The position numbers and the translations under genes are program-made. 9,039 nt of DNA from a virus (taxonomy: Duplodnaviria; Heunggongvirae; Uroviricota; Caudoviricetes): positions 1-9,039 of the IMG/VR virus record IMGVR_UViG_2645727555_000009; one strand, written 5' to 3'. Under the pieces are notes generated by a model. The model was not told the origin of the DNA. It made no database searches and saw only the letters and a list, made by a program, of their open reading frames with translations. Below, in pieces: positions 68-9,039 of the stretch (position 1 is the stretch's first letter; every line of letters starts with the position of its first letter).

Positions 68-223
68 TTACTCCTCAGGTTCGTAAACTGTGAAGACAGC
101 GACCTCCGTCTGGCCGGTTCGGATTCGTACCTCGCAGAGGTCTTTCCTCGTTACCAGTGCCGTCACTATGACGGTTAAACAGATGACGATCAGGGCGATT
201 AACATCGCCTTTTGCTGCTTCAT
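68..223 (-). CDS. hokD: Hok/Gef family type I membrane toxin (HokD/RelF-like), 51 aa
   Basis: Translation from the internal ATG at 223 gives MKQQKAMLIALIVICLTVIVTALVTRKDLCEVRIRTGQTEVAVFTVYEPEE: a hydrophobic transmembrane helix followed by the conserved Hok periplasmic motif (RKxLCEVRIRTGQTEVA). It matches my recollection of E. coli HokD/RelF closely. AAGGAG lies 7 nt upstream of this ATG. The provided 70-aa ORF (68..280) is an in-frame upstream extension that may be a mok-like leader frame. Paralogue assignment is from memory, not a search. Confidence 0.85.
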   Translation of the reverse strand: MKQQKAMLIALIVICLTVIVTALVTRKDLCEVRIRTGQTEVAVFTVYEPEE

Positions 224-514
224 AGCCTGCTTCTCCTTGCCTTTCGGCACGTAAGAGGCTAACCTAGATTTGCCGTTCATAGATTGAGCCTCAGATTAAT
301 GTTAAGCGTCTTGCAGGACGCGTAATGTTAACTGGGGCTTTTCTCTATCTGCCTTTTGGTATTCATGCCTGAGACAGATAGCCTCAAGCACCCGCAGCAA
401 TTCTACTTAACTATCCTTTCCCCGCAAATCGTTTTTATCCCCAGCGACAAATCGAATACACCACCAGCGCCACCGCCATTGCGATCCCTACCGTTGTGAA
501 TGCCTCAGGCCAGG

Positions 515-4933: not shown

Positions 4934-5899
4934 TTACCCCCTGAACCCCGGCGGAATTTCGGTATCCGGCTCAGAAATATGATTCACGCAACGCTGTACA
5001 GACGAACGCCCCAGGCGGATAACCAGTTCATCCCATTTTTCGCGAAGCTTTGACGGACTCATGATATTTTTTACCCAGAATGGATCCCGCTGCGCCCGAC
5101 CAAACATTTCACAAATTTGTCTGTGAGTTCTGCCATCCAGCATCCGCATTGTGCGCACGTCGTTGGCCCATGCGGTCCAGTTGGGTTCTTTCGGTCGCGA
5201 AATCTCGCCATCATCGCTGGCGGCCTGCTCGTAAAGACTCACGATTCGTCCCCAGATCCACTGCGCACACGCCAAATCTTCCTGGTTGCCCCACTGGCGT
5301 TTTTTTGCACTGAACACAACCGCGTCAGGGTGTCGGGTTAAAAAATCCTGTTCAACCGTCTGCGGGTCCGGTTGCGAAGCTTCCGGACGAGAAGTGTTTT
5401 TATTCTCTGTAGTAATCTCTGTTGTATTCTCTGTAAGATCATCAGGCCATTTTGACCCGATGACATTGAGTCGTTTTGAACCAATGGAACGTGCCATTTT
5501 GGCCCCTTCCATCGTGTCATTCTGACCTGATGGAGCAGCGCATTTTGACCTGATGGATTCGCTCACTTTGCCACCATTTAAAAGCTCGCTCTCGTAATTA
5601 ATCGTGTAAAAATTAGTCATATCACGCTTTGATTTATTGAGCTTTTCGCAACGCAAAAGCCCCAGCGTTTTCAGACTTGCAAATGCGCGTTTTAACGTTG
5701 ACTCTGACCAGAACGGGAACTGCTCCAGCCATTGTTCTGTTGTGTTATAAATCCAGCGAACACCATCACATTCCATGCCGGAACCGGTATCTCTCAACCA
5801 GTAATGCAACTGCTGCAACACGATGGCTTCGTTCAGACCAATTTTCATCGCCAGCTGCGTGTTTATAACCAGCGGACGTTCAGCAAAAAGGAGCTTCAT
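4934..5899 (-). CDS. Phage replication initiation protein (lambda O-like / YdaU-like), with the origin iterons inside the coding sequence
   Basis: Long ORF upstream of the DnaC-like gene. ATG at 5899 (MKLLFAERP…); the provided ORF extends to a TTG at 5923 that overlaps the ydaT stop. Five iterons lie inside the coding sequence, encoding the repeated IGSK peptide. The C-terminus is the type typically fused to helicase-loader-recruiting initiators. Confidence 0.75.
   Translation of the reverse strand: MKLLFAERPLVINTQLAMKIGLNEAIVLQQLHYWLRDTGSGMECDGVRWIYNTTEQWLEQFPFWSESTLKRAFASLKTLGLLRCEKLNKSKRDMTNFYTINYESELLNGGKVSESIRSKCAAPSGQNDTMEGAKMARSIGSKRLNVIGSKWPDDLTENTTEITTENKNTSRPEASQPDPQTVEQDFLTRHPDAVVFSAKKRQWGNQEDLACAQWIWGRIVSLYEQAASDDGEISRPKEPNWTAWANDVRTMRMLDGRTHRQICEMFGRAQRDPFWVKNIMSPSKLREKWDELVIRLGRSSVQRCVNHISEPDTEIPPGFRG
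5448..5558. repeat. Putative phage replication origin: five iterons (consensus CATTTTGACCTGATGGA) with about 23-bp periodicity, followed by a moderately AT-rich segment (5560..5640)
   Basis: Iteron starts at 5448, 5472, 5495, 5518 and 5541 (spacing 24/23/23/23). The two best copies are CATTCTGACCTGATGGA (5518..5534) and CATTTTGACCTGATGGA (5541..5557). The layout matches a lambda-type origin embedded in the O gene. Confidence 0.7.
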
Positions 5900-6711: not shown

Positions 6712-7212
6712 ATGAAAAGAAAATCCCTGTCAGAGATCGACCTGCAAGCCGCCCAGAGACTGAAAGAAATCTGGACGGCGAAAAAAAATCAACTAGGGTT
6801 AACCCAAGAGCGTGCGGCAGAAATTCTGGGATTTTCGACACAGGGAGCTGTAAGCCATTATCTAAATGGTCAGACACCTTTAAATCTTGAGGCTGTTATC
6901 AAGTTCGCAGGGTTGCTGCAAGTTCCTCCCGAGTCAATCAGACCAGATATGGCCGAGTTGTTACAAATTGTAAGGATGTATCCCCAAGAATCTGGGGAGG
7001 ACAATGTTGTCACTATATCTGCAGATATGGAACAATCGGAAAACGAACTTCCGTTTAATATAGACCCCATGGAGCGGGATTTGCTCCAGACGTTCAGGGC
7101 TTTCCCCAAAGAAGATAAAGAGAAAATGCTTAAGGAAATGAAGGAGAAAAAAGAATCAATTGAAGAAATCGTTGCGCGATGGCTAGCTGCGCAAAAGGGT
7201 CGTCGCGCCTAA
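6712..7212 (+). CDS. paaR2: Prophage repressor at the cI position (PaaR2-like HTH_XRE regulator), 166 aa, lacking a LexA/S24 autocleavage domain
   Basis: N-terminal HTH (LGLTQERAAEILGFSTQGAVSHYLNG), divergent from the Cro-like gene. The C-terminus is E/K-rich with no Ser-Lys peptidase motif. It is followed by an antitoxin/toxin pair, as in the O157:H7 paaR2-paaA2-parE2 locus. The gene symbol is a recollection-based assignment. Confidence 0.6.
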   Translation: MKRKSLSEIDLQAAQRLKEIWTAKKNQLGLTQERAAEILGFSTQGAVSHYLNGQTPLNLEAVIKFAGLLQVPPESIRPDMAELLQIVRMYPQESGEDNVVTISADMEQSENELPFNIDPMERDLLQTFRAFPKEDKEKMLKEMKEKKESIEEIVARWLAAQKGRRA

Positions 7213-7229: not shown

Positions 7230-7421
7230 ATGAGTACAGCCCTTTCCCCGATAATTTCTGAATTTGAAACAGTCGAACAAGAAAACAGCTATAACGAATG
7301 GTTGCGAACCAAAGTGGCAGCAAGCCTCTCAGATCCCCGTCCTGCAATTCCACATGACGAAGTAATGGCTGAAATGGAAAACCTTATTGCTCAATTAGCT
7401 GCAACGAACAGGAGTGAGTAA
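7230..7421 (+). CDS. paaA2: Small antitoxin of a ParE-type toxin-antitoxin module (PaaA2-like), 63 aa
   Basis: Strong GAGGAGG Shine-Dalgarno; 63 aa, acidic; its stop overlaps the toxin start (TAATG). Size, position and sequence (…SEFETVEQENSYNEWLR…PRPAIPHDEV…) fit my recollection of PaaA2. Confidence 0.6.
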   Translation: MSTALSPIISEFETVEQENSYNEWLRTKVAASLSDPRPAIPHDEVMAEMENLIAQLAATNRSE

Positions 7422-7711
7422 TGCTGCCCATTTTATGGCTACCTTCTGCACGTGATGATTTACGTCAGATCGTAGCCTATATTGCTAAGGAAAACCCTCC
7501 CGCTGCACGTAGACTAAAAATACGCATTGAAACATCAGTTTTGTCACTTACTGAACACCCTTATCTGTACCCACCGAGCGAAAGAGTTCCAAGTCTTCGT
7601 GAGATAGTGACTCATCCTAACTACATAATACTTTACCGAGTAACAGCATCTAACATCGAGATCGTAAATGTAGTTCACTCACGAAGACAGTATCCAAACA
7701 AAACCTGTTAA
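7421..7711 (+). CDS. parE2: ParE/RelE-superfamily toxin (ParE2-like), 96 aa
   Basis: Translationally coupled to the upstream antitoxin by a 1-nt overlap. The sequence has the ParE-family pattern (…LRQIVAYIAKENPPAARRL…YRVTASNIEIVNVVHSRR). Confidence 0.7.
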   Translation: MLPILWLPSARDDLRQIVAYIAKENPPAARRLKIRIETSVLSLTEHPYLYPPSERVPSLREIVTHPNYIILYRVTASNIEIVNVVHSRRQYPNKTC

Positions 7712-7725
7712 TCCTTCCTGTCAAC

Positions 7726-7748
7726 AACCACCTTCGGGTGGTTTTTTT
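7726..7748 (+). terminator. Rho-independent terminator after parE2
   Basis: Stem AACCACC / GGTGGTT with a TTCG loop, followed by a T7 run (7742..7748), 15 nt after the parE2 stop. Confidence 0.75.
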
Positions 7749-7758
7749 CTTGCCACGA

Positions 7759-7801
7759 TAATAGCACTACTATTTACATAATTAAATAGTAGTGGTATTG
7801 T
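7759..7801 (+). promoter_or_regulatory. Operator pair (OL-like) overlapping a candidate pL-like promoter for the ydfA-ydfB-ydfC-dicF operon
   Basis: Site 3 TAATAGCACTACTATTT (7759..7775) and site 4 AAATAGTAGTGGTATTG (7784..7800), centres 25 bp apart as in the OR pair. Candidate -35 TTTACA (7773..7778), 17-bp spacer, -10 TATTGT (7796..7801). Together the sites form a 30-bp palindrome (7765..7794). Confidence 0.55.
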
Positions 7802-8295: not shown

Positions 8296-8514
8296 ATGCA
8301 GAAACGAGAACCCGTCATCATCGCGCCAGACTATACCGATGATGAACTTTATGAGTGGATGCGCCAGAAAATTAATGCAGCGCAGGATCTGAAATGGGCT
8401 AATGAAGCCAGGGCTAAGCAGGCTGAAAATCTGTCCGCTCTGGAGCAGGATATCACCAGGCTGGAAAAAGCAGCGGCATTAAGCATTGCCAGAATGATTA
8501 CATACCCGCGTTAA
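8296..8514 (+). CDS. ydfC: YdfC-like protein (72 aa)
   Basis: GAGGA Shine-Dalgarno and ATG at 8296; 72 aa with a coiled-coil-like C-terminus. Position matches ydfC of the dicB operon. Confidence 0.6.
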   Translation: MQKREPVIIAPDYTDDELYEWMRQKINAAQDLKWANEARAKQAENLSALEQDITRLEKAAALSIARMITYPR

Positions 8515-8854
8515 TAGCTAACCAACGAAGCTAAGGTTGGTAATTAAGGAGTTCTCCACGGGTGAGGTGGAGTGCGTGCGCCGGACACGGGTGAGCATCC
8601 GGCACTGACAGTTTACTGAAAGGATATTTCCATGAAAAGTCAGACCATAACGCGAAAGCGCACGGCGAGGTAGCTGGTTCATAGATAACCTGTCGTTAAA
8701 TTTTCGTCGACCGTGCGCTTCCGGTTGTGGCACTCCGCGAAATGGCGCGGCGGTAAGTATGGCGGGGTTATTCCTTCCCCGTTGAGGACATCGGGTTGTC
8801 AGGTTGACCATACGCTTAAGTGACAACCCCGCTGCAACGCCCTCTGTTATCAAT

Positions 8855-8912
8855 TTTCTGGTGACGTTTGGCGGTATCAGTTTTACTCCGTGGCTGCTCT
8901 GCCGCCCTTTTT
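8855..8912 (+). ncRNA. dicF: DicF small RNA (prophage-encoded inhibitor of ftsZ translation) with its intrinsic terminator
   Basis: TTTCTGGTGACGTTTGGCGGTATCAGTTTTACTCCGTGGCTGCTCTGCCGCCCTTTTT matches my recollection of E. coli DicF with about one substitution. A GGCGG…CCGCC terminator stem is followed by a T5 run. It lies downstream of ydfC as in the Qin dicB operon. Confidence 0.8.
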
Positions 8913-9039
8913 AAAGTGAATTTTGTGATGCGGTGAATGCGGCTCAGCGCACGCGGAACAGTTAAAACCAAAAACAGTGTTATGGGTGGATTCTCTGTAT
9001 CCGGCGTTAATTGTTAACTGGTTAACGTCACCTGGAGGC

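Follow-up and report, generated by a model that had tools for sequence, protein, structure and literature searches.

A covarying, pseudoknotted RNA module between ydfC and the DicF terminator of a lambdoid prophage, common to the ban leader of P1

DicF is among the oldest known bacterial small RNAs, and the dicBF operon encodes toxic division inhibitors. To our knowledge, no explanation has been given so far of how transcripts extend beyond the DicF terminator into dicB and, in intact phages, into the genes for recombination and excision. The locus described here raises the question of what the 340 nt of untranslated RNA directly ahead of that terminator do. We examined them in a window of 9,039 nt, the whole stretch of viral DNA that was analysed; all features given below lie on its plus strand unless otherwise noted.

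The spacer and its operon

On the basis of its ORFs and of Rfam, terminator and promoter scans, the window is the immunity and early region of a lambdoid prophage. A DicA/CI-type repressor gene (6712-7212) is followed by a toxin-antitoxin pair (7230-7711) with a terminator. A consensus scan found a promoter-like site, TTTACA-17-TATTGT (7773..7801), inside a palindrome with 12-bp arms (7765-7794). Since the site lies between the repressor gene and ydfA, in line with the K-12 layout, it is probably the repressor-controlled early-left promoter, equivalent to dicBp, and would probably drive transcription of ydfA-ydfB-ydfC, the spacer and DicF. The final coding gene ahead of the spacer is ydfC (8296..8514), as given by the ORF list, phrog_1744 and the K-12/RefSeq annotation; the untranslated spacer of 340 nt (8515-8854) comes next, and then the DicF sRNA with its own intrinsic terminator (8856..8908), identified by the terminator scan and by Rfam RF00039 (match 8856-8907, 75 bits, E = 1.4e-15).

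The order ydfA-ydfB-ydfC-spacer-DicF is the same in the Escherichia coli K-12 prophage Qin, with a ydfC-dicF gap of 340 nt in both, and the same layout was found in one further RefSeq genome. The identity to MG1655 was 96.9% across the 480 nt comprising the 3' end of ydfC, the spacer and DicF, and the whole spacer aligned to a K-12-sized genome with 100% coverage and 96.8% identity. Of 5426 complete E. coli genomes, 4326 matched the spacer, at up to 8 places per genome; matches were also found, for example, in the inducible phages Tritos, Evi, mEp460 and HannyBb. In identity, the spacer is the untranslated region between ydfC and dicF in a dicBF operon of the K-12 Qin type, from which it shows no material sequence difference, the ATG at 8632 in the window being CTG in K-12. 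In the window scan, DicF was the sole strong plus-strand terminator within the early-left operon, and no strong terminator was predicted in the rightward operon. The genes dicB/kil, exonuclease, xis and int are all located beyond the DicF-type terminator (tRNAs and ban in P1).

The scan found no plus-strand promoter-like site in the spacer, in agreement with the report that DicF derives from a polycistronic transcript beginning upstream of ydfA, with no internal promoter (PMC10448788). In K-12, a 190-nt DicF species owes its 5' end to RNase III, and the 53-nt DicF is made by RNase E (Ragunathan 2023, PMC10448788), and in its account of processing this study confirms the findings of Faubladier 1990. 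In stationary phase the 190-nt species proved to be stable, and Northern blots showed a main species of 1,146 nt ending at the DicF terminator, a longer one appearing only with RNase E inactivated (PMC10448788). Since the locus is the same, with identical order and ~97% identity, K-12 processing can be transferred to the window. The proposal of a sequence-only reading of this DNA, that the spacer is a processing platform for DicF release, is correct; it is not new, because processing by RNase III as well as by RNase E has been published for the same K-12 locus (PMC10448788). The papers examined term the ydfC-dicF region merely 'a long untranslated region', and its fold and relatives are undescribed there.

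That the spacer encodes a protein is exceedingly improbable. Open frames do exist in it, namely a 111-aa frame with a TTG start on the minus strand (8518..8853), a 13-codon frame MKSQTITRKRTAR beginning at the ATG at 8632 (8632..8673), with AAGGA 7 nt ahead of the start, and 36-aa plus-strand frames; the region also carries a 'hypothetical protein' annotation in some phage records. However, the minus-strand frame is interrupted by in-frame stops in 67 of 102 distinct homologues, net frameshifting indels occur across it in 46 of them, its variable sites are distributed evenly over the codon positions (35/37/32), and it matched no PHROG family; it had rightly been called spurious. The 13-codon peptide, offered in the same reading as a possible product, does not correspond to a conserved gene: the start ATG was found in 9 of 103 distinct homologues and missing in the other 94, the codon being CTG in 69, K-12 included, and GTT in 21. 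The region frequently shows indels of 1, 2 and 4 nt, the substitutions show no codon periodicity, and variation in the spacer tracks base pairing, not codons. As the frames are broken, the start is not kept, and neither periodicity nor a PHROG match was found, we regard the protein-coding reading as refuted.

A mosaic 5' part and an RNase III hairpin

The spacer had been described as GC-rich and highly structured. The first description is weak, with 52.9% GC in the spacer as compared with 48.9% in the entire window, whereas the second holds: the 340 nt fold at -129.8 kcal/mol, in comparison with -110.4 +/- 5.3 kcal/mol for shuffled sequences (z = -3.68), and none of 100 shuffles was equal. A sequence check located every motif listed in the earlier reading. 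These are a 10-nt direct repeat CACGGGTGAG (8557-8566 and 8586-8595, with 19 nt between the copies), a 9-bp stem GGGTTGTCA/TGACAACCC (8793-8801 with 8821-8829), and two short stems, GCCGGA at 8580 with TCCGGC at 8598 and CCGCG at 8735 with CGCGG at 8746. An exact direct repeat of at least 10 nt appeared in 3.4% of 500 dinucleotide shuffles and a perfect stem of at least 9 bp in 3.6%, so that either one alone is mildly unusual. In the comparative analysis, the 9-bp stem and the CCGCG/CGCGG stem proved to be genuine conserved helices; the direct repeat is present, but it lies within a variable, dispensable part, loci L085 and L103 lacking the stretch between the copies and keeping one copy.

For this comparison, 126 DicF loci were gathered from IMG/VR by a DicF pattern; a DicF search with one genome per species yielded 6 loci only and no added diversity. 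All 126 loci were homologous from ~8646 to DicF, and the upstream onset of homology varied by locus, at 8535, 8557, 8575, 8627 or 8635. Because the onset differs between loci, the 5' third of the spacer (8515-8644) is a mosaic and variable part. Two small hairpins are found in it (8554-8559 with 8567-8572, and 8580-8585 with 8598-8603), each of which displays in its loop one GGGUGAG, a part of the direct repeat, and a third hairpin is predicted at 8606-8644.

Downstream of this part, MFE folds and covariation defined a long irregular hairpin of ~22 bp (8646..8729), formed by the pairs 8646-8651/8724-8729, 8653-8654/8722-8723, 8656-8665/8711-8720 and 8666-8668/8707-8709. The conserved arms carry a hypervariable apical part (8669-8706). 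Among 47 sequences, 93.3% of the cells were paired, as compared with 25-40% when the partner strand was slid, and 5 pairs were altered on both sides, as compared with 1.6 in shuffles. Compensatory cases include GG/CC changed to UA/UA in loci L200 and L203, and CACGG/CCGUG changed to CAUUC/GAAUG in L268. Phages of the cdtI and F1055 types have a hairpin of differing sequence in the equivalent place. The 53 nt of K-12 dicF correspond to 8856-8908 of the window, and 8908 minus 189 places the 5' end of the 190-nt precursor, the RNase III cut, at about 8719 (+/- a few nt). This calculated end lies inside the 3' arm of the hairpin, 137 nt upstream of DicF. The hairpin would be the RNase III substrate, the action of the enzyme having been shown experimentally for the 97%-identical K-12 region. 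A long-range processing stem, in which the spacer would pair with sequence downstream of DicF, was also considered and was rejected, as 58 of 200 shuffles gave a duplex at least as good as the best one.

Module B, a widespread four-way junction

The last third of the spacer is occupied by a four-way-junction RNA with a loop-linker pseudoknot, here called module B (8724..8838), which was defined by covariation. It consists of a closing helix P0 (8724-8731 with 8831-8838), three hairpins, H1 (8735-8739 with 8746-8750), H2 (8763-8767 with 8777-8781) and H3 (8793-8801 with 8821-8829), and a pseudoknot between 8757-8762 (GUAUGG) and the H3 loop (8808-8813, CCAUAC). The stretches 8751-8756, 8802-8807 and 8814-8820 are unpaired and conserved, the invariance of the H3 loop being partly built into two of the search patterns; the loop was also conserved in the DicF-selected and the BLAST-selected sets. 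CGGUAA and GGUUGA are invariant stretches of the module. Module B is separated from DicF by a single-stranded linker of 17 nt, GCCCUCUGUUAUCAAUU (8839..8855), which ends at the RNase E site that forms the DicF 5' end according to the literature. The nucleotides 8724-8729 are common to the base of the RNase III hairpin, where they pair with 8646-8651, and to P0, where they pair with 8833-8838.

BLAST of 8635-8912 against phage genomes, together with two further pattern scans, gave 331 instances of module B with 125 distinct 140-mers. In the MAFFT alignment, 95.5% of the cells were paired, as compared with 30-54% in the slid controls, and 13 pairs were changed on both sides, as compared with 6.8 +/- 1.5 in shuffles; none of 500 shuffles attained any of the five observed measures. 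The model-fitted alignment gave 96.8% paired cells and 14 pairs with changes on both sides. H3 was found as GUUGUCA/UGACAAC, as GUUGCCA/UGGCAAC in P1, as GCUACCA/UGGUAGC in L257 and as AUCACCA/UGGUGAU in L275, and H2 has been swapped for at least 6 other self-complementary sequences. The pseudoknot changes from GUAUGG/CCAUAC to GCAUGG/CCAUGC in P1 and in one DicF locus, P1 thus providing compensatory changes in both H3 and the pseudoknot; the pair 8758:8812 was UA in 80 sequences, CG in 15 and UG in 5, and was unpaired in none. The single-sequence MFE of the 190-nt RNA was not significant (z = -1.6) and did not recover the comparative structure, and therefore the structural inference rests on covariation.

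The stretch 8724-8846 was also found by BLAST in phage genomes without DicF, namely in cdtI, Ayreon, Stx2c phages, 2H10, Salmonella phage F1055 and Actinobacillus phage pPE4, and module B is present in the ban-operon leader of P1 and P7 (P1 match of 96 bits with the covariance model). In the lambdoid phages it is positioned after the repressor gene in the leftward operon, sometimes past small uncharacterised ORFs. In P1, it starts ~29 nt downstream of the C1-controlled Pban start. Of 321 instances scanned automatically, 306 had an intrinsic terminator after module B, and in most of the others one can be seen by eye. At least 8 types of terminator hairpin follow it, DicF included, at 46-93 nt past H3, and each phage record or locus has a single copy, in the left arm only. 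Module B is an independent, mobile element. The three-module mosaic of the spacer, and the sharing of its 3' module with P1, P7 and phages without DicF, had been overlooked in the sequence-only reading. Some phage records place 'hypothetical protein' calls across module B.

The P1 record annotates a 'dicF-like region' (NC_005856 68791-68892), which overlaps both the terminator and H3 of module B. What P1 has in common is the leader module rather than the 53-nt DicF, and the P1 terminator is different; the annotation shows that a similarity had been noticed earlier. A literature search on the P1 ban operon found nothing relevant. As the P1 transcript begins ~29 nt upstream of P0, it does not include the RNase III hairpin. 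An Rfam 15 scan of 8480-8930 (E <= 10) returned only DicF and a chance-level match to mascRNA (14.3 bits, E = 4.6; gathering 42.5), and five related loci gave no Rfam family across module B. Module B is apparently an undescribed and very widespread family of structured RNA, an earlier account of the upstream similarity being possible. The CACAACA past H3 in cdtI-type loci suggested the anti-GcvB sRNA AgvB; this candidate was discarded, since the place of AgvB is the PR' moron site and the CACAACA forms the 3' strand of helix P0.

Possible roles of module B at the terminator

A variant without the core of the module was found in phage PhiR5_2, in which H1-H3 are missing; the pair of small hairpins, the hairpin for RNase III, a terminator resembling DicF and kil are all retained. 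Both P0 strands are joined in it as GGTTGTG-AATAA-CAAC, and the phage encodes the antitermination protein N. A scan for the PhiR5_2 junction gave 38 more loci. Because the variant was collected with one junction pattern, it represents a single deletion or insertion event. Where a locus had 3 kb or more of sequence upstream, and with detection covering two N families and an arginine-rich-motif screen, an N homologue was found upstream in 20 of 22 deletion-variant loci (three N types), in 0 of 186 lambdoid module-B loci and in 0 of 38 P1-type module-B loci, counts in which the loci are not independent and which are confounded by shared ancestry and immunity-region linkage. The screen for an arginine-rich N-terminal motif was positive in 19 of the 22 deletion-variant loci, and at module-B loci it returned only repressors and spurious frames. 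No N is listed in the annotated module-B phages. The mutual exclusion of module B and N in this sample is a strong hint, but no proof.

These data led us to favour, at somewhat less than even confidence, the hypothesis that module B acts in cis as an N-independent read-through element. The folded nascent module would act on the transcribing RNA polymerase, so that some transcripts get beyond the DicF-type terminator as far as dicB/kil, exo, xis and int (ban in P1), and transcripts stopping at the terminator would be processed into DicF. Module B would then perform the task done by protein N in N-bearing phages. This hypothesis is supported by the position in the early operon, the near-constant presence of a terminator, the essential genes past it and the exclusivity with N. 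The cis-regulatory RNA proposed from the sequence alone is still plausible in this form, and is now the favoured reading, for the 3' third of the spacer. In addition, module B may be toggled between open and closed states by RNase III cutting or by the order in which the RNA folds; because the hairpin base and P0 share 8724-8729, cleavage by RNase III could permit closure of the junction.

Several observations weigh against read-through. The K-12 blots are rich in terminated RNA, although steady-state bands are no measure of termination efficiency; since the 1,146-nt terminated transcript is the main one in K-12, termination is clearly not abolished. The exclusivity with N is subject to the confounding described above, and the pairing of module and terminator would suit a unit for sRNA biogenesis equally well. 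A known precedent is phage HK022, in which putL and putR are cis-acting antiterminator RNAs (PMC9378689). Like module B, put is a folded RNA in the repressor-controlled early operon of a temperate phage without N, is located upstream of terminators that have to be passed and has conserved unpaired nucleotides (PMC9378689). However, put is ~70 nt long with two stem-loops, whereas module B is ~115 nt and combines three hairpins with a closing helix and a pseudoknot, and put lies downstream of both early promoters, PL and PR, in contrast to the one copy per phage of module B on one arm. Suppression of termination by put is factor-independent and is affected by mutations in the beta' zinc-binding domain. 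The module-B covariance model gave no match in the HK022 genome at E <= 10, and the likeness to put is therefore an analogy only. The lambda early-left leader, with nutL and the RNase III site of the N leader, is similar in having an RNase III hairpin before the first terminator; unlike lambda, the left arm here has no N gene and no boxA-like motif.

Two known recognition sites were examined and rejected. A boxA/nut site is not supported, as no [CT]GCTCTT motif was found in the left arm and there is no N gene. As to an RfaH ops site, the heptamer GGCGGTA was located twice (8749 and 8870) without the complete GGCGGTAG, and the terminators that come after the module in P1 and F1055 do not contain this heptamer. 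A stronger form of the read-through hypothesis, namely that module B represents a new class of cis-acting RNA for read-through of intrinsic terminators by E. coli RNA polymerase with no need of a phage protein, coupled to the production of DicF-type sRNAs and possibly gated by RNase III, is one that we put forward only tentatively and regard as rather doubtful.

A compact pseudoknotted junction followed by an intrinsic terminator in a leader is also what would be expected of an aptamer sensing a ligand or condition, a riboswitch-like attenuator ahead of the toxic dicB/kil, and the exclusivity with N is compatible with any part in a termination decision. By inspection, which was non-exhaustive, no conserved alternative pairing between the 3' strand of the module and the terminator was seen across eight terminator types. 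The module is confined to temperate phages of enterobacteria and does not precede metabolic genes, and no known class was matched in Rfam; we consider such a sensing role very unlikely.

Another possibility, which we judge unlikely, is that module B is a scaffold for the biogenesis or stability of the next sRNA, without effect on RNA polymerase. Its fold would be tRNA-like, P0 stacking on H3 and the loop of H3 docking onto the linker between H1 and H2, and would mark the precursor for RNase E or RNase P and shield the 190-nt RNA. RNase E in E. coli cleaves just 3' of tRNAs, and tRNA-like modules fused to small RNAs are known from mascRNA of MALAT1 and from the tRNA-miRNA units of murine herpesvirus 68. 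By analogy with these units, module B places a cloverleaf-like fold directly upstream of a small regulatory hairpin RNA, and the cloverleaf topology and the weak mascRNA match are in line with such a scaffold. Unlike those units, it is not recognised as a tRNA: ARAGORN found no tRNA or tmRNA, the Rfam tRNA and C4 models were without match, and the likeness is limited to the four-way topology, the D-loop, T-loop and acceptor features of a tRNA not being recognisable. We know of no involvement of RNase P or RNase Z with module B.

A scaffold would agree with the sRNA-like terminator hairpin that is nearby in nearly all instances, and with the fact that module B forms the body of the 190-nt RNA accumulating in vivo (PMC10448788). 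The span from the Pban start to the terminator in P1 is ~195 nt, similar to the 190-nt lambdoid species, suggesting that the same RNA boundaries are obtained via the transcription start in P1 and via RNase III in the lambdoid phages. On the other hand, just 8 nt separate P0 from the terminator in P1, so that no seed would be available for release, and the variant of N-bearing phages keeps the RNase III stem and the sRNA yet has no module, which is hard to reconcile with a scaffold. The predicted accessibility of the linker and seed (8843-8869) was 0.43 with the native module and 0.41-0.43 with shuffled modules, 33-41% of the shuffles being at least equal. A structural insulator that keeps the DicF seed single-stranded was rejected, as the predicted accessibility was the same as with shuffled modules.

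Module B is better conserved than the sRNA 3' of it. DicF is the founding case of intra-operon termination with RNase E trimming, comparable to CpxQ, SroC and SdhX (PMC9438474); these conserve the released 3' part, whereas here the discarded 5' domain is better conserved and is common to different sRNAs. This pattern would fit a trans-acting phage RNA, either the 190-nt RNA or a 137-nt by-product (8719-8855), whose 5' domain would bind a protein of the host or of the phage, with DicF and the remaining 3' hairpins as add-ons or plain terminators. The invariant unpaired nucleotides and the pseudoknot are features typically found where a surface binds specifically, a seed region is missing from the P1 version, and the 190-nt species has the stationary-phase stability noted above. 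However, no protein gene is consistently linked to module B, a 137-nt species is unreported, the published probes having been aimed at DicF, and the exclusivity with N would be left unexplained. We therefore take a trans-acting role to be quite unlikely.

Returning to the read-through hypothesis, our account of the whole spacer, about which we are evenly divided, comprises a variable filler, an RNase III hairpin and module B, which would combine DicF processing with a role in read-through. In this account, 8515-8644 would be variable filler with small hairpins. Cleavage of the 8646-8729 hairpin by RNase III would yield the 190-nt RNA from ~8719, with module B as its 5' body, and cleavage by RNase E at the end of the 17-nt linker would free DicF. 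The observation from which the analysis started is real, but as first framed it is largely explained already; a second stable RNA and conserved structure, for which it had proposed to look, are at hand in the 190-nt species known from the literature and in the covarying folds found here.

A conserved pseudoknotted fold directly before the DicF terminator, common to the P1 ban leader, makes the read-through of this terminator an experimentally approachable question. If the fold governs read-through, it would be a novel antiterminator made of RNA and, for synthetic biology, a compact part, and would represent a second, structurally unrelated solution beside HK022 put, present in about four-fifths of sequenced E. 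coli and in P1-family plasmid prophages. If module B is instead a scaffold or a protein-binding RNA, it would still be a new, widespread RNA family that annotation has overlooked.

Variation in module B and at the position of DicF

In the homologous loci collected for comparison, the position occupied by DicF, 3' of module B (window 8724-8838; helix P0, hairpins H1-H3, linkers and a pseudoknot), is taken by several different sRNA-like hairpins (L129 3100-3200, L130 3100-3260, L172, L270 and L305), of which some retain UUUCUGGUGA, the 5' seed of DicF, and others do not. In phage pPE4, the linker and terminator are present in two tandem copies. The hairpins at this position resemble a set of sRNA "heads" that can replace one another.

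The module copies that diverge most (L257 5061-5546 and L275 4986-5137) carry four compensatory changes in H3, and their gene neighbourhood is non-lambdoid. The module of L257 is followed by approximately 310 nt of apparently non-coding sequence and then by a strong terminator (5518-5546), with no sRNA-like hairpin near the module. A rearranged copy was found in L325 (5539-5680, minus strand), where GCGCACGGCG, which forms the RNase III hairpin's 5' arm, is joined straight to the module linker GGTACGTATGG, removing the 3' arm of that hairpin, the 5' strand of P0 and H1. This fusion has the appearance of a deletion between similar GCGC(A)CGGCGG stretches.

We also found, in phage PhiR5_2 (L351 2500-2780) and in loci L352-L389, a spacer variant from which nothing but the module core, H1-H3, is missing. 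In these copies, AATAA joins both strands of helix P0, and a different DicF-like terminator, beginning GGCGGACATCGG, follows. The phages with the core-less variant encode protein N (20 of the 22 loci with at least 3 kb of upstream sequence).

Repeats shared by the spacer and the DicF region

The heptamer GGCGGTA occurs twice in the window, within the invariant linker of module B (8749-8755) and in the DicF terminator, where it forms the 5' arm (8870-8876). The 3' arm of that terminator (UGCCGCC) could also pair with the copy in the module. The RfaH ops element starts with these 7 nt, but the complete ops sequence is absent.

Downstream of DicF, CAGCGCACGCGGAAC (8944-8958) repeats AGCGCACG, which is found at 8657-8664 in the 5' arm of the hairpin cut by RNase III. 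Base pairing of the downstream stretch with 8712-8719 is possible, as is pairing with 8573-8580; the energy of the overall duplex was no better than that of shuffled sequences. This repeat may be connected with the published RNase III cut that produces the 72-nt DicF.

Other genes and regulatory RNAs

Two overlapping small plus-strand genes of 63 and 96 aa (window 7230-7711), in a RelE/ParE-like layout, separate the repressor gene from the early-left promoter and are followed by a strong terminator (7726-7743). A palindrome with 12-bp arms lies 3' of this terminator and overlaps a promoter-like site; together (7765-7801) they probably serve the dicBF-type operon as operator and promoter.

At the opposite end of the window, an Rfam match to the sok antitoxin RNA (218-393, minus strand; 112 bits) adjoins a 70-aa minus-strand ORF (68-280) with a Hok-like hydrophobic segment. 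This pair resembles a hok/sok-type toxin-antitoxin locus.

Rfam matches to C4 antisense RNA and isrK were found on the rightward side of the immunity regions of phages cdtI and F1055 (L129 540-728 and L131 29-105, both minus strand), and the region around the repressor gene of these phages therefore holds several structured regulatory RNAs.
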